A stretch of 64,000 nt of DNA from Rhodobiaceae bacterium (GTDB lineage: Bacteria; Pseudomonadota; Alphaproteobacteria; Rhizobiales; JAKPQE01). The position numbers and the translations under genes are program-made. How positions within the stretch are numbered: position 1 is the first letter of the stretch; the number at the start of each line of letters is the position of its first letter. Below the pieces are notes generated by a model that searched no databases, was not told the DNA's origin, and saw nothing but the letters and a program-made list of their open reading frames with translations. Below are positions 3,179 to 62,592 of this stretch, piece by piece. The stretch is from contig JANQEG010000142.1 in NCBI GenBank assembly GCA_028278505.1, positions 3,581 through 67,580 of the forward strand. Reading direction: 5' to 3'.

Positions 3179-3223
3179 CCCCCGAGCGGCGCTCTAGCCT
3201 CTCGTCTCGATGTCATCACCTAA

Positions 3224-3332
3224 CCCCTCCCTTGTCACCACCCGGTTTATCCGGGTGGTCCATTGGCGCGTCAACTTGCCAACGCTTTGGTGCAGGAATT
3301 CAAGCGCTTCTGAGCACCGAAAGGCCATTGGA
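3224..3332 (+). repeat. MITE/REP-like element, copy 1 (right arm truncated)
   Basis: CCCCTCCCTTGTCACCACCCGGTTTATCCGGGTGGTCCATTGG... aligns by eye with copies at 3385, 36658, 56354 (reverse) and 62321. Confidence 0.8.
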
Positions 3333-3384
3333 CACACTACACGACACAAACACCATCACCACGACCCCTCCCTCGTCACCACCA

Positions 3385-3530
3385 CCCCTCCTTCGTCACC
3401 ACCCGGTTTGTCCGGGTGGTCCATTGGCCCGTCCACTTGCCAACGCATTTGTTAAGGAGTTCAAGCGCTTCTGGGTGCCGGACCGCCATTGGATTGCCCG
3501 GATAAACCGGGCAATGACGACGGAGGAGAG
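3385..3530 (+). repeat. MITE/REP-like element, copy 2 (full length, ~145 bp)
   Basis: Left arm CCCCTCCTTCGTCACCACCCGG-TTTGT-CCGGGTGGTCCATTGG. Right arm CCATTGGATTGCCCGG-ATAAA-CCGGGCAATGACGACGGAGGAG. The termini are imperfect inverted repeats. An extra left terminus lies in tandem at 3365..3384. Confidence 0.85.
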
Positions 3531-3616
3531 ATCGAAACCATGCCAAAATGCCTGAACCGGGCAGCAGTGGGACATGCCCGGCAGGTCGAAAATATTCTGT
3601 TGGGTCGTGTAGTGTG

Positions 3617-3662
3617 GCCATCGGAATCCCCGCATGAAGCGGGCAATGACGACGGAGCAAGG
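3617..3662 (+). repeat. arm-only fragment of the same element family
   Basis: GGCCATCGGAATCCCCGC-ATGAA-GCGGGCAATGACGACGGAGCAAGG resembles the right arm. Confidence 0.6.
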
Positions 3663-3776
3663 ATCGACACCATCCGAAAACGCCTAAACCGAACGGCAAT
3701 GGGACAAGCCCGGGCATGACAAGACTATTGCGGTACTTCGATGTCGCCCGCCGACTCAATCGCGAAATCCAATGCC

Positions 3777-6550: not shown

Positions 6551-7138
6551 TTACAGCCAGCGGCAGCCGCCGTCGTCGATCGCCATCACCAGGTCCTGCG
6601 GCACGTGAAGCCGTATCGTCTCCGCCGGGGAAAGGCTGCCGATGTGGCCGCTGAGCACGCGGCCGACGCCGCCATGGGCGACGACAATCGCGGGGCCCGC
6701 AATCTCGCCATACCAGGCCCGCACACGCTCCGACAGCATCGCATAGCTTTCGCCGCCCGGCGGCCGATAGGACCATTTGTCGGCCTGGCGCAGCCGATGC
6801 GCCTCAGGGTCGTCACGCTTGATCTGGCGGTAGCTGCGCCCCTCCCAGTCGCCGAAGGCGATCTCCATGAGCCGCCGGTCGGTGCGGTAGCCGGCCGCTT
6901 CAAGCCCGAGTCCGCCGCGCAAAAGCTCCATCGTCTCGCAGGCGCGCCGGAGCGGGCTGGCGACATAGTCGAAATCGCGCGGATCGTGTCCGGCGTCGGC
7001 CAGGACTTCGGCCAGCCGCGCCGCATTGGCGCGCGCCTGGGCGCGGCCGGTTTCGTTGATCAGCGTGTCGGTCTGGCCCTGCAGAAGACCGTCAACATTC
7101 CAGTCGGTCTGGCCGTGGCGGAGGAAATAGATCGGCAT
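6551..7138 (-). CDS. histidine phosphatase (phosphoglycerate mutase) family protein
   Basis: ORF 6551..7240 with start moved to ATG 7138, giving MPIYFLRHGQTDWN (RHG catalytic motif). Confidence 0.85.
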   Translation of the reverse strand: MPIYFLRHGQTDWNVDGLLQGQTDTLINETGRAQARANAARLAEVLADAGHDPRDFDYVASPLRRACETMELLRGGLGLEAAGYRTDRRLMEIAFGDWEGRSYRQIKRDDPEAHRLRQADKWSYRPPGGESYAMLSERVRAWYGEIAGPAIVVAHGGVGRVLSGHIGSLSPAETIRLHVPQDLVMAIDDGGCRWL

Positions 7139-11073: not shown

Positions 11074-11118
11074 CACCCCTTTCCGTTCAAGGGGACGGGT
11101 CGGGGGCGGGGGGGCAAT
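11074..11118. repeat. hairpin plus G-run fragment related to the element inside ileS
   Basis: CCCCTT-N7-AAGGGG followed by GGGTCGGGGGCGGGGGGG. Compare GGGGAGGGTCGG...GGGGTGGGGGG at 52362..52395. Confidence 0.45.
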
Positions 11119-16904: not shown

Positions 16905-17058
16905 AAATTCACCGTTCCCGCGGAAGCGAGGACCCATTGCCCCGCTCAACACGGTATGCCGGCCGCGATCCGGTCGATCTCTCGAAATCATCAATAGGAC
17001 CGGAGCTTGTGGCCCACGCCAATGGTTCCCCGCTTTCGCGGGGAAGGTGCGGGTCGGG
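16905..17058. repeat. two further CCAATGG / CCCGC-hairpin units
   Basis: TTCCCGCGGAAGCGAGGACCCATTG at 16914..16938 and GCCAATGGTTCCCCGC-TTTC-GCGGGGAAGGTGCGGGTCGGG at 17018..17058. Confidence 0.5.
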
Positions 17059-36657: not shown

Positions 36658-36807
36658 CCTTCTCGGAGTCATCACCGGGCTTGTTATCCGGGTGGTCCAT
36701 TGGCTTGTCGGTTTGGCCAAAGCACTGGTGAAGATATTCAGGCGCTTCGGAGCGCGGAAAGGCCATTGGATTGCCCGCATAAAGCGGGCAATGACGATGG
36801 AGAGGGG
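36658..36807 (+). repeat. MITE/REP-like element, copy 3
   Basis: ...GTCATCACCGGG-CTTGTTAT-CCGGGTGGTCCATTGG...CCATTGGATTGCCCGC-ATAAA-GCGGGCAATGACGATGGAGAGGGG. Confidence 0.8.
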
Positions 36808-36863
36808 TCAGAAAGAGCGTGAATCCGCTTCAACCGGAAAGCGCCGGAGAAAGACCGGGTGCG

Positions 36864-49836: not shown

Positions 49837-50349
49837 CTACTTTGTATTTGCGGCGTTTTTTCGGCGATCGAACACCGACTCATACAGGAGACCGATCACG
49901 CCGGCAACGATGGCGACATCGGCCACGTTGAAGACGTACCACTCGAAACCGCGCCAGTGCAGCAGAAAGAAATCGGCGACGGCGCCGTGAACGATGCGGT
50001 CGATGGCGTTGCCGAGCGCGCCGCCGATGATCAGCCCGAATGCCAGAGCGGTGATCCGGCGGGAGGTACGGGCGAGCAGAAGGCCGAGAATGATCGCCGC
50101 CGACAGTTTAACGCCGACCAGCACCCAGCGGCCGAGATCGCCGTCCTGGGGAAACAGGCCGTAGGAGATGCCGCGGTTCCACACCAGCACGAGGTCGAAA
50201 AACGGGGCGACAGCGACCCGTCCCGCCGCGGCGATGTCGAATCGCTCAAGCAGCCAGAATTTGGTCGCCTGATCGACGATGAGCACCGCCGCCGCAATAG
50301 TGAGGCCGAGACGGCTCAGCGGCCCGAGCAGGCGAAGGCCCGCGGCCAT
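49837..50349 (-). CDS. lspA: lipoprotein signal peptidase (signal peptidase II)
   Basis: 170-aa ORF with DQATKFW, NRGISYGLF, GGALGNAIDR and FNVADVAI. Confidence 0.93.
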   Translation of the reverse strand: MAAGLRLLGPLSRLGLTIAAAVLIVDQATKFWLLERFDIAAAGRVAVAPFFDLVLVWNRGISYGLFPQDGDLGRWVLVGVKLSAAIILGLLLARTSRRITALAFGLIIGGALGNAIDRIVHGAVADFFLLHWRGFEWYVFNVADVAIVAGVIGLLYESVFDRRKNAANTK

Positions 50350-50355
50350 CTCCGC

Positions 50356-53300
50356 CTACTCCGCCGCCGCCCTGGCATCGTATTCGCGCATGGCGGCTGC
50401 GTCCCGCAGCGACAGGTCGGGATAGTCGGGATCGCTTCCAACCTCCGGCAGGACCTTCCAGGAGCGGGCGCATTTGCGGCCTTCGGCGCGATCCGGCACC
50501 ACCGCGACGCCGTCGACGTCTTCGAGCCGGAACGCATCGGCCGGCCCGTCTTCCGCGATGAGTACGGCCTGGCTGGTGATCGCGATTTCGGCCAGATCGA
50601 CCCCGGCGAGCGCCGCAAGCAGCGCCTCATCGGCCACGTAGATTCGCGGCGCGGCCTCGAGCGAGGAGCCGATGCGCTTGTCGCGGCGCTCGATTTCGAG
50701 CGCGCCGGTGACGACCCGGCGCAGGCGCCTTATGTCGGCCCATTTGTCGGCCAGCGCGTCGTCGCGCCAATCGGCCGGCACGTCAGGAAAGAGCTGCAGA
50801 TGCACCGAATCGTCCTCGGACGGAAAGCGGCTGAGCCACGCCTCCTCGGCGGTGAACGGCAGCATCGGCGCGAGCCACGGGATCAGATGCGCGAACAGGC
50901 GGTCGAGCACGGTCAGGCACGCCTTGCGCTTCAAGCTCGAAATCGGATCGCAATAGAGCGCGTCCTTGCGGATGTCGAAGTAGAAGGCCGACAGGTCGAG
51001 CACCATGAAGTTCGACAGCGCCGCGGTGATGCGCTTGAAATCGAAGCCGTGATAGCCCTCGCGCACGATTGCGTCGAGTTCCGCCAGCCGGTGCAGCATC
51101 AGCCGTTCGAGCTCGGGCATGTCGGCAGGCTCGACCCGGTCCTCGGGACGGAAATGGGCGAGCGAGCCCAGCATCCAGCGGATCGTGTTGCGCAGCTTGC
51201 GATAGGCCTCGACATTGGTCTTGAGGATTTCCGGGCCGATCCGCAAATCCTCCGAATAGTCCGAGGACACCACCCAGAGCCTCAGGATATCGGCGCCGGA
51301 CTGGTTGATGACGTCCTGCGGCTTGACCTGGTTGCCGAGCGATTTCGACATTTTTCGGCCGTCCTCGGCCATCACGAAGCCATGGGTCAGCACCGCGTCA
51401 TAGGGCGCGCGGCCGCGGGTGCCGCAGCTTTCCAGGAGCGAGGAATGGAACCAGCCGCGATGCTGGTCCGAGCCCTCCAGATAAAGGTCCGCCGGCCACT
51501 TCAGATCCCACGGGCTGTCGTCTTCCAGACAGAAGGCGTGGGTGGAGCCGGAATCGAACCAGACGTCGAGAATGTCGTCGATCTTCTCCCAGTCGTTCGG
51601 GTTATCGACGATGCCCTCCAGGAAGCGCGCCTTGGCGCCATCGGCGAACCAGGCATCGGCGCCCTCAGCCTCGAAGGCGGTGCCGATGCGCGCGATAAGC
51701 TCATCTGATTTGGCGAACTTCGCGTTCGGGATCACCTCGCCGGTATCGGTGTTGACGAAGACGGTGATCGGCACGCCCCAGGCGCGCTGGCGCGACAGCA
51801 CCCAGTCGGGCCGGTGCTCGATCATCGAATAGAGCCGGCGCTGGCCGCTGGCCGGCACGAAGCGCGTGGCGCCGATGGCGTTGAGTGCGCGGGTCCGCAG
51901 CGTGTCATTGGCGCCGTCGATCGGCCGGTCCATATGCACGAACCATTGCGGCGTGTTGCGGAAGATGATCGGCTTTTTCGAACGCCAGGAATGGGGATAT
52001 TGGTGTTTTAACCGGGCCCGGCCGATCAGCGCGCCGGCGGCGACAAGCGCATCGATGACGGCCTGGTTGGCGTCGCCCTTATTGCCGTGCTCATCGATAA
52101 CGCGGGCCGCGCCGCCCGCGCGATCCGGACCGAATCCCGGCGCGTCCTTGGTAAAAAAGCCGTCGGCATCGACCGGATGCGGGATCGTCGTGTCGATGCT
52201 TAGTCTTTCCAGATATTCCTTTTTTTCCATCCAGGCGTCGAAGTCTTCCGCGCCGTGGCTCGGCGCGGTGTGGACGAAACCGGTGCCGTCCTCGTCGGTA
52301 ACGTGGTCGCCGTCGAGCAGCGGCACGTCGAAGCCATAGGGCACACTACCCTCCCCCTTGTGGGGAGGGTCGGACCGCAGGTCCGGGGTGGGGGGATTTG
52401 TTGCCTTACCCCCCTCCTGTCGCTGCGCGACATCCTCCCCCGCAAGGGGGGAGGAGGGGGGCCATCCCGCCAGCGGATGGGCGCAGGTCAGGGCCGCCAA
52501 TTCCTCGGGCGCTACATCGCGAACGAATATATAGCCATCTTCCTCTATTCGCGCGGCCGCCATCACTTGCTTAGCAAGTGTTTTGGCCAGCAGATAAGTT
52601 TCACCCGTCTTTGCCCAATTGTCCGCCGGCGCGGCCGTCACCTTGTAGAGTCCGTAGCGGATCTTCGAGGAAAAGCTGATCGCCCGGTTGCCGGGAATCG
52701 TCCACGGCGTCGTCGTCCAGATGACAACATGAGCGTCCCAAAGTTCGTATGCGCTGTGACCTGGCCCCTGATTGAATGCGTCAACTGAACCAACAACTGG
52801 GTGCATTTTTCTTTGAATGGGGAACTTCACGAACACCGTATCCGACTGATAGTCCAGATACTCGACCTCGGCCTCGGCCAGCGCGGTGTGTTCGACCACC
52901 GACCACATCACCGGCTTGGAGCCGCGGTAGAGCTGGCCGGTCATGGCGAACTTCATCAGTTCGCGGGCGATCTTCGCCTCGGCCTTGAACGTCATCGTCG
53001 TATACGGCTTTTCGAAATCGCCCTCGACGCCGAGACGGCGGAATTCCTCCGTCTGCACCTTGATCCAGTGCTCGGCGAATTCACGGCATTCGCGGCGGAA
53101 ATCGTTGATCGGCACCTGCCGCTTGTCCCGGCCCTTGGCGCGATAGTCCTCCTCGATCTTCCATTCGATCGGCAGGCCGTGGCAGTCCCAGCCGGGCACG
53201 TAGTCGGAATCGTAGCCCAGCATCTGCATCGACCTTGTGATCACGTCCTTCAGCACCTTGTTCAGTGCGGTGCCGATATGGATGTGGCCGTTGGCGTAAG

Positions 53301-53499
53301 GCGGGCCGTCATGGAGCACGTATTTCTCACGGCCCTTGGCCGCCTCGCGCAGCCGCTTGTACATGCCGAGACTGTCCCAGCGGGCGATGAATTCCGGCTC
53401 GCGCTTGGGCAGGCCGGCGCGCATCGGGAATTCGGTTTTCGGCAGGAAGAGCGTCGTCGAATAGTCGCGCCCTTCGCTCGTCTTGGTGTTTTCGCTCAT
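50356..53499 (-). CDS. ileS: isoleucine--tRNA ligase (with an apparent ~40-aa insertion in the CP1/editing region)
   Basis: 1047-aa ORF with [16 protein letters not shown] (HIGH) and KMSKS (RKMSKSLGN). Confidence 0.96.
52344..52467. repeat. multi-hairpin repeat element embedded in frame in ileS
   Basis: Hairpins CCCTCCCC-N5-GGGGAGGG (52349..52369), CGGACC-GCA-GGTCCG (52371..52385) and TCCTCCCCC-N5-GGGGGAGGA (52433..52455), plus G6/C6 runs. Confidence 0.7.
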
Positions 53500-53783: not shown

Positions 53784-54716
53784 TCATGCGACGGGCTTCG
53801 GCGCGGCCCGTTGCTCGCGGTAGAGGATAAAGAGGCCCGAGCCGACGATGAGCGCGACGCCGAGCCAGGTCAACGGGGCGGGAAAATCGTCGAAGACGAA
53901 ATAGCCGAGCAGGGTCGCGGAGACGATTTCCAGATAGCCGAGCGGCGCCAGCACCGAGGACGGCGCCCGCGCAAAGGCGAGCACCAGCAGCAGATGGCAG
54001 GCAAAGCCGATCGCACCGACGCCGAGCAGCATGACGAGATCGACCACCATCGGCATCCGCGCGACCTGGCCTTCAATGCCGAGAAAGGTGGTCAGCGCCA
54101 AGAGGCCGCCCAGGATCACGCTGCCGTGCAGGCCGGTGCCGAACATCAGCGTCAGCGCCGATGCGGTGCCGGCGAGGAACCGGGTCAGCAGCAGATAGGC
54201 GGCGATGAAGACCGCGGTGCCGAGCGGCAGCAGCGCGCGCGGGCCGAACACGTCGACGCCGGGCTGGACGATCAGAAGCGCGCCGAGAAAGCCGATCAGC
54301 ACCGCGCTCCAGCGGCGCAGCCCGACCCGCTCGCCAAGCACGGTCGCCGACAGCGCGGTCAGGACCATCGGCTGGATGAAGTAGATCGCCAGCGCATCGG
54401 CGATCGGCATGACCTTGATCGCGGCAAAGAAGAACAGAATGGCGAACGCCAGGCAGGTGCTGCGCAGAAGGTGGAGGCCGAACCGGTCGGGCAGGATTTC
54501 GATCCGCTGGCCGAGCAGCCAGGCGGTCAGAAGCGCGAGCACGGTCTGGATCAGGCTGCGGGCGAAGGTGATTTCGAGCGCCGGCATCGTCTGGCCGAGG
54601 ATCTTGGCCAGCGTATCCATCGTCGGGACGACGAGCATGGCTGCGACCATCGCCGCAATGCCCGCCGGGGCGGTCATCGGCAGCAGCGCGCTGGTGTCGA
54701 AAGGGCGCGGCGGCAT
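53784..54716 (-). CDS. DMT-superfamily (EamA-like) transporter
   Basis: 310-aa polytopic ORF with two EamA-like halves. Confidence 0.8.
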   Translation of the reverse strand: MPPRPFDTSALLPMTAPAGIAAMVAAMLVVPTMDTLAKILGQTMPALEITFARSLIQTVLALLTAWLLGQRIEILPDRFGLHLLRSTCLAFAILFFFAAIKVMPIADALAIYFIQPMVLTALSATVLGERVGLRRWSAVLIGFLGALLIVQPGVDVFGPRALLPLGTAVFIAAYLLLTRFLAGTASALTLMFGTGLHGSVILGGLLALTTFLGIEGQVARMPMVVDLVMLLGVGAIGFACHLLLVLAFARAPSSVLAPLGYLEIVSATLLGYFVFDDFPAPLTWLGVALIVGSGLFILYREQRAAPKPVA

Positions 54717-54721
54717 GTCCG

Positions 54722-55738
54722 TTAATCGGCCGCGCCCGGCAAGAGGCCGAGATCGAGGTCGAGCGGCGACAACGGTTTCAGCGAGGCCAATATCGCCCGG
54801 GCCTCGTCGCTGTCCCGGTCCATCTGCGCAATCAGCGCCTCGACGCTGTCGAACTTCGCCTCCGGGCGGATGAAGCCGGCAAGGGCGACATCGACGGCCT
54901 TGTCGTAAAGGTCGCCGTCGAAATCGAACACGAAGACTTCGAGGAGCGGCGCGCCGTCATCGAAGGTCGGCCGCCGGCCATAAGAGGCGACGCCATTGTG
55001 CACGACGCCGTCGGCGCGAAGCGTGACGGCGTAGATGCCATGACGGAGCCGGCAATCGGCCGCAAGCGCCAGATTGGCGGTCGGATAGCCGAGCTCGCGG
55101 CCGCGCTTGTCGCCGTGGCGGACCAGGCTGCGGACGAACCAGCGATAGCCGAGCAGTGCGTTCGCCTCGACGACATCGCCGGCCTCCAGCGCCTCGCGGA
55201 TGCGGCTCGACGACACCGGTCCGCCGCCTTCATCTGCGAAGGCCTCGACGACGGTCACCCCGAAACCGCGCTCGGCGCCGCAGGCGGAAAGGAAGCTCGG
55301 CGAGCCCTGCCGGGCGCGGCCGAAATGGAAGTCGTAGCCGGTCACCACGTGATGCATGTCGAGGGCGCCGATCAGCACGGTTTCGACGAAGGCGTCGGCC
55401 GCCATCGCTGCAAAAGTATGGTCGAACGGCACTTCGAGCAGGCCGTCGAAGCCGAGCGTGCGGATGATCTCGGCCTTGACGTCGGGCGGCGTCAGCCGGA
55501 ACACCGGCGCCTCGGGCCGGAAAAGCGTGCGCGGATGCGGCTCGAACGTCATGGCGATGACCGGCAGGTCCTCGGCCCGGCCAAGCTCGCGCGCCGTGTC
55601 GAGCACCGCCTGATGGCCGCGGTGGACGCCGTCGAAATTGCCGATCGCAACGACACCCGATGTCAACGCCTCAGGGATGTCGGCAAGCGCGTTAAGCCGC
55701 AGGAACGGGCGTTCTCCGGGGGAACGGGAAGGAAGCAT
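54722..55738 (-). CDS. ribF: bifunctional riboflavin kinase / FAD synthetase
   Basis: ORF 54722..55783 with start moved to ATG 55738. Contains AIGNFDGVHRGHQAV, GYPTANL and FDFDGDLY. Confidence 0.92.
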   Translation of the reverse strand: MLPSRSPGERPFLRLNALADIPEALTSGVVAIGNFDGVHRGHQAVLDTARELGRAEDLPVIAMTFEPHPRTLFRPEAPVFRLTPPDVKAEIIRTLGFDGLLEVPFDHTFAAMAADAFVETVLIGALDMHHVVTGYDFHFGRARQGSPSFLSACGAERGFGVTVVEAFADEGGGPVSSSRIREALEAGDVVEANALLGYRWFVRSLVRHGDKRGRELGYPTANLALAADCRLRHGIYAVTLRADGVVHNGVASYGRRPTFDDGAPLLEVFVFDFDGDLYDKAVDVALAGFIRPEAKFDSVEALIAQMDRDSDEARAILASLKPLSPLDLDLGLLPGAAD

Positions 55739-55903
55739 CGAAACCTCTGGAGCGCAGCACCTGCCGAATGCGAAGATCGTCAACGCGTCTCCGCTGCACG
55801 TCTATACCGAACTGCGGCCGGATGCCATGCCGTGGCGCTGGAAATCGATCACTAACCCGCTTAAAGACGTTCTTGAAGCCGACATTACCGAAGGACAACG
55901 CCC

Positions 55904-56248: not shown

Positions 56249-56353
56249 GGATTGCCGTTTAGGATTGAAGCGGCGGAAGCCGACAACGCCCTGCGTTTTG
56301 TGCATGGGCGTAGTCCCAAGCCGGCCGCGTTTATCCTCCGGGCCTGCATCAAT

Positions 56354-56497
56354 CCCTCCACGTCGTCATTGCCCGCTCCCAAGCGGGCAATCCAATGGCT
56401 TGTCTGCGCCCAGAAGCGCCCGAACTTCTTCACGAACGCTTTGATCAAGCTGACAAGCCAATGGACCACCCGGATAAACCGGGTGGTGACGAAGGGG
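56354..56497 (-). repeat. MITE/REP-like element, copy 4 (reverse orientation)
   Basis: The reverse complement aligns with copy 2 (...CCAATGGACCACCCGG-ATAAA-CCGGGTGGTGACGAAGGGG). It lies between convergent arsC and the GT4 gene. Confidence 0.8.
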
Positions 56498-56595
56498 CGG
56501 TGGTGGCGCCGATGTCAGAGTCCAAACCCGTGTCCGGCAATTACCGGGTAAAGAATGAACACCTGACTACGCTCGGATCCGAAGCCTATTTGCCC

Positions 56596-62155: not shown

Positions 62156-62320
62156 TCATGCGAAATCCGGTTTTTCCCACGGTCCCGTCGAAACCGGCGC
62201 CGGCGCCCGGTTCAGTGGGCCAAGGTCATCATTGGCTGTTGCAGCGATGGTTTTCTTTCGAGGGAAGTGAAGCTTGGACACGGGGGGGGGGCAGCCTCTC
62301 CTCTCGACGTCACCACCCGA

Positions 62321-62468
62321 CCCCTCCCTTGTCACCATCCGGTTTATCCGGGTGGTCCATTGGCCCGCCGACTTGCCAATGCATTCGTAAAGAAATTCAG
62401 CCGCTTCTGGGTAACGGACCGCCATTGGATTGACCGCTTGGGAGCGGGCAATGACGACGGGCAAGGGG
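62321..62468 (+). repeat. MITE/REP-like element, copy 5 (full length)
   Basis: CCCCTCCCTTGTCACCATCCGG-TTTAT-CCGGGTGGTCCATTGG...CCATTGGATTGACCGC-TTGGGA-GCGGGCAATGACGACGGGCAAGGGG. An extra left terminus lies in tandem at 62296..62320. Confidence 0.85.
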
Positions 62469-62592
62469 AGATGGACCACCGAAACCGCTCCAACGGGACA
62501 GCGGTGTGTCGAAACCAAAGCACATGCCTTGCCGCAACCGAACGCACATTCCGGCAAGCGGACCGGTCTGTCAGCGCTCGGGACTGCCCCGT

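Follow-up and report, generated by a model that had tools for sequence, protein, structure and literature searches.

An in-frame palindromic repeat dimer in the CP1 editing domain of an isoleucyl-tRNA synthetase from Hyphomicrobiales

The ileS locus and its additional codons

The window, i.e. the whole 64,000-nucleotide stretch of Rhodobiaceae DNA analyzed here, carries an intact ileS gene on the minus strand (50356..53499), encoding an isoleucyl-tRNA synthetase of 1047 amino acids that was assigned from its ORF and translation, Pfam and its orthologues. Directly 3' of ileS lies lspA, encoding signal peptidase II (49837..50349, minus strand; Pfam Peptidase_A8, 1.7e-35). Upstream is ribF, encoding FAD synthetase/riboflavin kinase (54722..55783, minus strand; Pfam FAD_syn and Flavokinase), with an EamA transporter gene (53784-54716; Pfam EamA) between ribF and ileS. 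The ileS product matched tRNA-synt_1 (3.8e-129) and Anticodon_1, and HIGH-type (HIGT) and KMSKS motifs were seen in its translation. The class I catalytic domain, the CP1 editing motifs and the anticodon-binding domain expected of an IleS are all present, and the IleS motifs were invariant across the orthologue alignments. In a tree of IleS orthologues, the protein groups with those of Rhodobium and Afifella, within the Hyphomicrobiales. A contig search recovered no contig encoding exactly this IleS.

Orthologue alignments revealed 42 extra codons (W346-P387; 52339..52464, minus strand) between the HPLAG and YGFDVP motifs of the CP1 editing domain. The original prediction had proposed that about 40 residues were inserted in this CP1/editing region and that their length left the frame open with no stop. 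Both points were borne out, since the stretch is an indel missing from most orthologues and from the nearest relative recovered, and the 1047-aa ORF crosses it with its frame unchanged and zero stops. The equivalent turn corresponds to residues 301-307 in PDB 8c9e/1ffy and spans about 5 residues in solved IleRS. The insert maps to this turn, and AlphaFold2 predicts it as a low-confidence loop on a confidently predicted domain (pLDDT of 48-57 in the insert vs >90 in the flanks). Rich in Pro, Gly and Ser, the 42 residues are predicted to form a disordered protrusion from the tight CP1 turn. When the insert peptide (43 aa) was searched against a set of 5.8 billion proteins, two weak short matches only were obtained.

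Anatomy and relatives of the palindromic element

Five adjacent stem-loops occupy positions 52342-52461, in frame within ileS. Three of them had been recognized beforehand and were confirmed in place: hairpin A (ACCCTCCCC/GGGGAGGGT; 52348-52356/52362-52370), a perfect 9-bp stem with a 5-nt loop, hairpin B (CGGACC-GCA-GGTCCG; 52371-52385), and hairpin E (TCCTCCCCC/GGGGGAGGA; 52433-52441/52447-52455), also 9 bp and perfect. The other two had been overlooked. These are hairpin D (TGTCGC-TGC-GCGACA; 52418-52432) and a central pairing (52387..52417) of GGTGGGGGG (52387-52395) with CCCCCCTCC (52409-52417) across a 13-nt spacer. This central G-/C-run pairing is 89% complementary in the repeat search and was found in the minimum-free-energy folds of both RNA and DNA. 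The fold of the element was better than that of 200/200 dinucleotide shuffles (z=-3.6 as RNA, z=-5.3 as DNA). Perfect stems fit recent insertion and selection on structure alike.

The element is dimeric: two half-units of ~59 nt stand head to head in opposite orientations. Half-unit 1 (52342..52400, plus strand) consists of hairpin A (52348-52370), hairpin B (52371-52385) and then the G-run GGGGTGGGGGG, while half-unit 2 (52403..52461, minus strand) consists of hairpin E (52433-52455), hairpin D (52418-52432) and then the C-run (52409-52417). Using a covariance model of the half-unit (model R1), half-unit 1, a copy which itself belonged to the training set, scored 71.5 bits (E=4e-16), and half-unit 2, a copy outside the training set, scored 46.4 bits (E=8e-10). 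The model describes a first stem, CCCTCCCC/GGGGAGGG, closed by a 5-nt loop and followed by another stem that covaries and then by GGGGTGGGG; the conserved first stem measures 7-9 bp, and the second, 6-7 bp long, is variable in sequence yet complementary. Among 12 copies, four pairs of hairpin B were changed on both sides with pairing kept, each of these pairs in between 1 and 7 copies. The element of the window is a mosaic combining two half-unit types.

Relatives of the element were found outside coding sequences. Intergenic copies with the same five-hairpin plan are present on a plasmid of Rhizobium sp. 11515TR (L001, 1501-1618) and between ABC-transporter genes of Phyllobacterium, and related copies lie between genes on plasmids of Rhizobium, Sinorhizobium and Phyllobacterium. 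The plasmid search matched 61 records; among the matches listed in annotated records, none was under an annotated gene. Half-unit copies were recovered outside the ileS coding sequence at five loci (L001, L002, L039, L057 and L021), and the source metagenome run contains at least two further contigs bearing half-unit copies, with unlike flanks. These comparisons indicate that the element belongs to a palindromic repeat family that is dispersed and, in Hyphomicrobiales, normally lies between genes, in agreement with the rhizobial intergenic style of repeat that had been proposed from the letters of the window.

Such nucleotide relatives, intergenic elsewhere and with compensatory stem changes, weigh heavily against the hairpins being incidental features of either an ordinary lineage-specific IleRS extension or an assembly chimera. 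The insert is indeed GC-rich and of low complexity, the window derives from the metagenome of a coral sample, and Logan contigs of the source run span the spot only as short pieces, the whole insert not being independently assembled. However, the source run contains 95% of the region's 31-mers, and the same architecture occurs at the same CP1 site in the isolate genomes of Nitratireductor arenosus, Oryzicola mucosus, Jiella avicenniae, Aureimonas glaciei and Mesorhizobium sp. AaZ16 (NZ_CP171729.1). We therefore regard an extension or a chimera as most improbable. Rfam contains no family matching the element and gave sub-threshold microRNA-like hairpins only. An intein or intron was set aside on the grounds that no Rfam intron or other known RNA matched and that the frame is kept in every lineage.

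Within the 64-kb window, a second copy was found neither by BLAST nor, at significance, by the covariance model. The search for further copies that had been suggested as a check gave none in the window, and intergenic relatives on the plasmids of other genomes. In roughly 0.2 Mb of DNA around the other carriers, no other match to the half-unit was detected outside ileS at E<=0.1, which shows the family to be low-copy. A fragment at 11074-11118, previously thought to be related, scored 8.1 bits (E=3) against the half-unit model and is indistinguishable from chance. The hairpin at 17026-17045 is an unrelated simple stem-loop. The abundant REP family of the window is a different, CGTC-tagged one. 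The original prediction of a selfish element tolerated in ileS thus holds for a member of a repeat family inserted in frame. That it is a selfish element of this genome is unproven, since the window has no other copy and its abundant REPs belong to another family, and it is not a one-off. In one ileS (L005), an identical 50-nt half-unit is present in two different loops, which demonstrates duplicative spread.

Recurrence of inserts at the CP1 turn

Inserts in the CP1 loop were detected in 14/80 related genomes, a set enriched for carriers since its loci had been ranked with an insert-bearing query, as well as in 6 metagenome contigs and in one Bosea MAG. The 66 other IleS, including the nearest relative recovered (Rhodobium orientis, L003), are without insert, and another sample had an insert in only 2/67 IleS. 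An exhaustive search of representative proteins returned mostly IleS fragments whose match was split around the insert, and added three carriers only, two at the CP1 site (P0198 and P0200) and one with a repeat-like insert at a second site (P0148). Every insert at the CP1 site is in frame without a stop, a count covering 14 genome loci besides the window, the 6 metagenome contigs and the Bosea locus, which argues for translation of the insert. The loop would be functionally neutral.

In its empty form, the turn reads HPL.G-L/F-GGG-Y, encoded by ...GGC CTC GGC GGC GGC TAY.... Filled alleles share a conserved left junction, G-W-(R/A/P)-P-x-S-P, and end with P-Y on the right. The residue following the conserved Y is acidic in 1/21 filled vs 38/68 empty alleles. 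Alignments of filled and empty sisters disclosed no clear target duplication.

Several observations favor a true hotspot at the CP1 turn, with independent landings resulting from target preference and/or from the difficulty of deleting a loop inserted in frame when the gene is essential. On the IleS tree, filled alleles have a scattered distribution, in at least 7 lineages whose sisters are without inserts; insert-free sisters accompany the filled alleles of the window (whose neighbor is Rhodobium), Jiella avicenniae, Aureimonas glaciei, L081, L005/L006 and a Mesorhizobium-like clade. The palindromic inserts at the site are of at least 4 sequence types, including that of the Bosea MAG, a ~105-nt long palindrome of unrelated sequence with a different junction. 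Among the 34 model matches in 1.48 Mb, 23 were at the CP1 site and two more in another loop of IleS, while the ribF-ileS spacer contained two dimers. Stages of decay are visible, from a half-decayed insert (L009) to a solo half-unit (L089) and a remnant (L020). Finally, in the window, L016, L038 and L081, both flanks of the insert stay nearest to their own sisters; horizontal transfer of an insert-bearing ileS tract was not seen in these four lineages. Against this stand the bias of the 80-locus set and the low count in the other sample, the fact that neither a target duplication nor a target motif could be defined, and the junction residues common to the lineages (a left-hand W and a right-hand P-Y-S/A), which could mean shared ancestry. 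We give the hotspot about an even chance.

Shared ancestry would be expected if one or a few ancient insertions had been maintained as a long-lived presence/absence polymorphism, spread or erased by homologous recombination, with gene conversion overwriting the arms from the repeat families of each genome. The conserved left junction, the P-Y on the right and the scarcity of acidic residues after the Y of filled alleles agree with this possibility. So do the terminal hairpins, which within one insert are exact inverted copies, locus-specific loops included, and the arms, which are 95-97% identical between loci with ileS flanks 77-88% identical, as fits conversion. Such a history would, however, require many independent restorations of a uniform empty GLGGGY, in four lineages no foreign tract was found up to 30 codons from the insert, and the Bosea element is unrelated and differently joined. 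We consider it rather unlikely.

The stem-loops could also be retained for a role in ileS expression, as mRNA or DNA structures involved in RNase protection, in ribosome pausing during CP1 folding or in binding of gyrase or another protein, and not as passengers. The ileS locus has a concentration of elements, in two of its coding loops and in the spacer upstream, the stems of the window are perfect, and in L007, L010 and L088 conservation is higher in the stems than in the coding sequence on either side, with unrelated spacers between the arms. This role appears improbable to us, as most IleS, close sisters included, are without insert, inserts decay (L009, L013 and L020), the same units adjoin unrelated genes and no Rfam family matches.

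Given the anatomy, the family membership, the indel status and the frame conserved across lineages, the element is probably a REP-like dimer of a normally intergenic Hyphomicrobiales family which was inserted in frame in ileS and forms a disordered CP1 loop, the enzyme being intact. A copy of the intergenic type would have entered ileS with a length that preserved the frame, and the translated insert would protrude from the CP1 turn, leaving the enzyme intact. It may have arrived by hairpin-dependent single-strand transposition or by template-switching during replication, at the G-rich (GGC)3 target. The G-runs of the two half-units are able to pair together. This class of repeats is not known to have a transposase. 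Recurrent capture at the turn refines this explanation rather than opposing it.

Protein-level conservation across genera with no nucleotide copies elsewhere would speak against a mobile element. The site is filled in many genera, but the inserts are not conserved as proteins and intergenic copies exist. Since the same loop is filled by several insert types in many genera, a purely random tolerated hit is insufficient, and for a low-copy family the repeated use of one codon-level site goes beyond random insertion. We tentatively propose, at somewhat below even chance, that otherwise intergenic palindromic repeats land, or are retained, recurrently and with codon precision at the CP1 turn across Hyphomicrobiales, that unrelated families entered it independently, and that the protein adjusts by a W on the left and the loss of the acidic residue after the Y. 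If so, these repeats either have a definable target or get trapped in an essential gene, and the locus would be a natural system for how transposase-less REPs move.

The best-documented protein-coding palindromes read in frame are those of Rickettsia, and scattered intragenic cases are also listed in a REP survey (PMC3733652). In-frame REPs are thus known, from the Rickettsia palindromic elements (RPEs) and from a REP dimer in Erythrobacter ileS; in literature searches, a hotspot in the CP1 region of ileS did not come up. Here the same phenomenon is met in free-living, GC-rich Hyphomicrobiales, in an essential enzyme with a well-understood editing domain, and a single orthologous loop has undergone the event repeatedly, with element types of several kinds and stages of decay that can be seen. 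These loci represent insertion experiments made by nature, which probe how much the CP1 domain tolerates, and offer a handle on the mobility mechanism and target choice of REP-like repeats. They also call for caution when IleS indels are used in annotation and phylogenetics, because the indels described here are mobile DNA and not signature indels.

Comparison with known repeat systems

RPEs are summarized in PMC10969869 and PMC3733652 (after Ogata et al. 2000, 2002) as ~100-150-nt palindromic elements of an alphaproteobacterium, in frame in housekeeping genes and translated, with surface loops suspected. The analogy originally drawn with them is apt, the element of the window being an in-frame palindromic repeat in a protein gene. 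The host order is Hyphomicrobiales here and Rickettsiales there, outside the host genus of RPEs. By description, the element is GC-rich with G/C runs, whereas RPE peptides are Lys/Asn/Phe-rich, and its family is mostly intergenic and low-copy. We know of no recurrence at one orthologous codon position across genera in the description of RPEs.

RIME and Sm-repeats, as reported in PMC2573895 (after Østerås et al. 1995), are ~100-nt palindrome mosaics, intergenic in Rhizobium, Sinorhizobium and Agrobacterium. The same taxa appeared in our plasmid search and the halves have a mosaic make-up, a likeness by description, but the element of the window is intragenic while RIMEs are defined in that account as intergenic. 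Bacterial MITEs that make in-frame fusions include ERIC, Nezha and Correia (review PMC10969869). Like them, the element is short, non-autonomous and readable through in a gene, with inverted ends, its half-units being inverted copies. No clear target-site duplication was seen in the alignments of filled and empty sisters. In contrast to MITEs, the structure of the element is one of REP-like stem-loops, not of IS-derived ends.

REPINs are mobilized by RAYT transposases (Y1) and have a conserved GTAG tag next to the stem. As in REPINs, two inverted REP units and a spacer can fold either into a single long hairpin or into local ones. Unlike REPINs, the window family is low-copy and has no conserved GTAG tag, CTAC preceding hairpin A in the window only, with variable columns in the other 11 copies.

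Further parallels are offered by the REP survey of Di Nocera, De Gregorio and Rocco (2013; PMC3733652), which describes CGTC- and GTAG-tagged REPs whose units carry a tag of 4 nt, a stem of 8-9 bp and a loop of 4-5 nt. Most of these REPs form head-to-head dimers; they are found chiefly in Alphaproteobacteria and have no known transposase. The survey reports REPs inside tRNA synthetase genes, including a CGTC-1 dimer in the Erythrobacter litoralis isoleucyl-tRNA synthetase ELI_13550 (residues 467-488; supplementary file 4). By residue numbers, that insert seems to be at a different IleS position, perhaps the second IleS loop (site 2). The element of the window resembles CGTC REPs by its 9-bp stems, 5-nt loops, opposite-strand units with tags inward and alphaproteobacterial host. 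It differs from them by its tag, CGAC (52428-52431; GTCG at 52369-52372) and not CGTC/TGTC/CCTC, by stems starting with TCC/CCC without A·T at stem positions 1-2, by a CCA found only past the G6 run (52462-52464) and not directly after the stem, and by the second covarying hairpin and G-run added to each unit. Type-2 relatives, with ATCTCCCCC stems, are nearer to the CGTC REPs than the window copy.

Architecture of the ileS insert

The ileS gene of the window, encoding isoleucyl-tRNA synthetase, is an intact ORF of 1047 aa on the minus strand (50356-53499; Pfam tRNA-synt_1, 3.8e-129, and Anticodon_1), and the frame expected to stay open across the segment indeed contains no stop. Pfam searches placed lspA directly downstream (49837-50349) and an EamA transporter gene (53784-54716) and ribF upstream. 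This EamA-family gene separates ribF from ileS, which are direct neighbours in L021, L057 and L090, the other loci looked at. The window originates from a coral metagenome, 95% of the 31-mers of the region being present in one run, and the IleS of its organism groups with those of Rhodobium orientis and Afifella.

Between the HPLAG and YGFDVP motifs, ileS carries 42 extra codons (W346-P387; 52339-52464, minus strand). They comprise hairpin A (52348-52370, a perfect 9 bp stem with a 5-nt loop), hairpin B (52371-52385, 6 bp stem), a central pairing of a G-run with a C-run (52387-52395 with 52409-52417), hairpin D (52418-52432, 6 bp stem) and hairpin E (52433-52455, a perfect 9 bp stem). Repeat and fold analysis showed that the original prediction was correct in its coordinates and its three hairpins, and had missed two more pairings. 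The fold of the insert beat 200 of 200 dinucleotide-preserving shuffles (z=-3.6 as RNA, z=-5.3 as DNA).

An alignment of 12 palindromic half-units (A3) was folded with RNAalifold, and searches used a half-unit covariance model (R1). The first stem is invariant across the 12 copies; in the second, four pairs change on both sides with pairing kept, each of them doing so in between 1 and 7 copies. R1 matched the insert twice: a plus-strand match of 71.5 bits covers 52342-52400, and a minus-strand match of 46.4 bits (E=8e-10), to a copy outside the training set, covers 52403-52461. Since these matches are oppositely oriented, the element is a dimer whose two half-units are arranged head to head, the left one type-2-like and the right one of type 1. 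Within the 64-kb window, R1 gave no match beyond these two and BLAST no second copy of the element; the fragment at 11074-11118, which had been put forward as a relative, scored 8.1 bits (E=3), a value indistinguishable from chance.

Dispersed relatives of the half-unit

Distant BLASTN matches were obtained in 61 plasmid records, including Sinorhizobium, Rhizobium, Phyllobacterium, Neorhizobium and Pararhizobium, with the two halves of the query matching separately; among the listed matches in annotated records, none lay under an annotated gene. The full five-hairpin architecture is found on a plasmid of Rhizobium sp. 11515TR (L001, 1501-1618), in which stems B and D differ in sequence from those of the window and keep their complementarity, and Phyllobacterium sp. 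628 has two half-units between ABC-transporter genes. Outside ileS, the type-2-like/type-1 heterodimer of the window recurs in Chelativorans salis (L039), and within ileS it recurs in a metagenome contig (L083). The predicted kinship with intergenic repeats is borne out by the plasmid relatives.

In the source coral run (X1), at least two other contigs of ordinary depth carry half-unit copies with unlike flanks and 2 mismatches over 32-39 nt (records 1 and 4). The family is therefore present in the source community at low copy number, which does not imply membership of the same genome. In one rhizosphere and one soil metagenome run (X2, X3), k-mers of hairpins A and B (52352-52393) had word depths of ~385-460, far above neighbouring ileS, which shows that half-units of this type are frequent in soil communities.

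Occupation of the CP1 turn of IleS

A scan with the IleS segment, keeping one genome per species, yielded 80 Hyphomicrobiales loci. The distance from TPWT to TGFVHTAP was 107-121 aa in 66 of them and 143-172 aa in 14, these carriers including the isolates Nitratireductor arenosus, Oryzicola mucosus, Aquibium sp., Mesorhizobium sp. AaZ16, Jiella avicenniae and Aureimonas glaciei. Rhodobium orientis lacks the insert, its IleS reading HPLADLGYDF. The ~40 residues are an indel, as had been suspected. In the IleRS structures 8c9e and 1ffy, the counterpart of the query HPL is residue 301 and that of PLLDGDHVT is residue 307, leaving a turn of ~5 residues versus 49 in the window. Residues 201-500 were modelled with AlphaFold2 from 68 homologues (mean pLDDT 85, editing domain >90); in this model the insert has a pLDDT of 48-57 and almost no secondary structure. 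The insert is thus predicted to be a disordered surface loop of CP1 on an otherwise confident editing domain.

In all 14 carriers the extra residues lie at this one turn and are encoded by stem-loops of the CTCCCC/GGGGAG type, with at least three sequence types (CCACCTCCCCCTTGTGGGGAGGTCG...GGGTGGGGG, GATCTCCCCCC...GGGGGAGATGTCGGCGCAGCCGACAGAGGGGGG and CCCCTCATCCGGCC...CTTCTCCCCG for types 1, 2 and 3, respectively). When metagenome contigs were scanned for the junction pattern, six of seven matches proved to be ileS with an insert at the CP1 turn. A Bosea MAG (L090, GCA_046292405.1) has in frame at the same turn a sequence-unrelated, near-perfect long palindrome of ~105 nt (CCTCATCCTGAGGAG...CTCCTCAGGATGAAGG) encoding HPEEARSAVSKDG...SFETQAAPAPQDEG. 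A unit related to it (SFEASLRSAPQDEG) is part of the insert of locus L005. Apparent decay was seen in L020 (10247-10309), where a 6-aa remnant holds one hybrid hairpin (AGWPTSSQGGGGY), in L009 and L013, where the right half or arm of the dimer has degenerated, and in L089, which retains a solo half-unit.

Every insert found at the CP1 turn, in the 14 genome loci besides the window, the six metagenome contigs and the Bosea locus, is in frame and free of stops, and on this evolutionary argument the insert is probably translated. Its peptide would be a neutral passenger. Insertion may have proceeded by a hairpin or single-strand route, or through a template switch at the target, a G-rich (GGC)3, and the elements would persist because an essential gene tolerates their loss only by precise in-frame deletion. 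That the stem-loops instead act in ileS expression seems to us improbable.

On a neighbour-joining IleS tree with insert columns removed, carriers are scattered, each beside insert-free sisters: the window by Rhodobium, three separate Aurantimonadaceae, L005 with L006, and several in a Mesorhizobium-like clade. Over 30 and 60 codons on both sides, the flanks of the window and of L016, L038 and L081 are closest to those of their own sisters and not to other carriers, so that a transferred ileS tract carrying the insert is not evident. These distributions, and the unrelated Bosea element at the same turn, argue for repeated independent capture, a reading to which we give an even chance. Against it, the left junction of filled alleles is almost invariably G-W-(R/A/P)-P, with W in place of L/F, and the right one P-Y, and an acidic residue after the conserved Y is present in 1/21 filled versus 38/68 empty alleles (p=2.5e-5, alleles being treated as independent of phylogeny). 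Such common junctions point to shared ancestry or to accommodation at the protein level; an old presence/absence polymorphism with conversion of the arms would explain them and is possible, if rather doubtful. In L090 the TGG CGC stands on the opposite side of the element and no W occurs at a second IleS site, which indicates that W belongs to the site and not to the element. The lack of an evident transferred tract speaks against such a polymorphism.

This second variable loop follows FVHMD (FVHMD...TLR, window aa ~529) and holds in-frame inserts of 39 aa in L004 (~6789-6816), 44 aa in L005 (2656-2781) and 20 aa in L016. Across the 80 loci (1.48 Mb), R1 gave 34 matches at E<=0.1: 23 at the CP1 turn, 2 at the second loop and 9 elsewhere, the last including half-unit dimers in the ribF-ileS spacer of L021 (4750-4906) and L057 (9056-9191), whose ileS coding sequences have no insert. 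Because the search sequence included the insert, carriers were favoured when these loci were ranked; in a different sample, only 2 of 67 IleS fragments had one. The density in the flanks is unbiased and shows a low-copy family: in ~0.2 Mb of DNA fetched around carriers, no other R1 match at E<=0.1 lay outside ileS. Chance therefore cannot account for repeated placement at one 30-nt target.

In L005, a half-unit is identical over 50 nt in both IleS loops, which at the sequence level we regard as direct evidence for duplicative spread. Within each insert of L007, L010, L088 and L038, the terminal hairpins are exact inverted copies, locus-specific loops included. Arms are 95-97% identical among L007, L010 and L088, and the central spacers, of 21 nt in both L007 and L010 and of 54 nt in L088, are unrelated; ileS flanks of L007 and L010 are 77-88% identical.

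Resident REPs and known palindromic repeats

The abundant REP family of the window differs from the ileS element. Its units, clustered at 3196-3697 (intergenic, between two minus-strand ORFs), 36669-36842, 56347-56512 and 62293-62473, read (C/T)GTC-ACCACCCGG-TTTRT-CCGGGTGGT-CCA, or TGG-ATTGCCCGG-ATAAA-CCGGGCAAT-GACG in a variant, and are embedded in longer repeated blocks of 110-137 nt. They fit the description of CGTC-tagged REPs, with a CGTC/TGTC tag, 9-bp stem, 5-nt loop and CCA tail (Di Nocera et al. 2013, PMC3733652). The ileS element shares with these REPs the 9-bp stem, the 5-nt loop and the head-to-head arrangement, but has a CGAC tag, other stems and extra parts.

Among established rhizobial repeats are the intergenic mosaic elements RIME and Sm-repeats (PMC2573895). 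The literature searched did not describe the IleRS CP1 turn as a hotspot used recurrently by several families, an absence that is no proof of novelty. Intragenic REPs are reported in many species, tRNA synthetase genes included (PMC3733652), among them a CGTC-1 dimer at residues 467-488 of the Erythrobacter litoralis isoleucyl-tRNA synthetase (PMC3733652, supplementary file 4), which by residue numbering may correspond to the second IleS site. The occurrence of palindromic repeats in frame is what characterises the Rickettsia RPEs (PMC10969869); such repeats are already known as a kind, of which the ileS insert is a further example.
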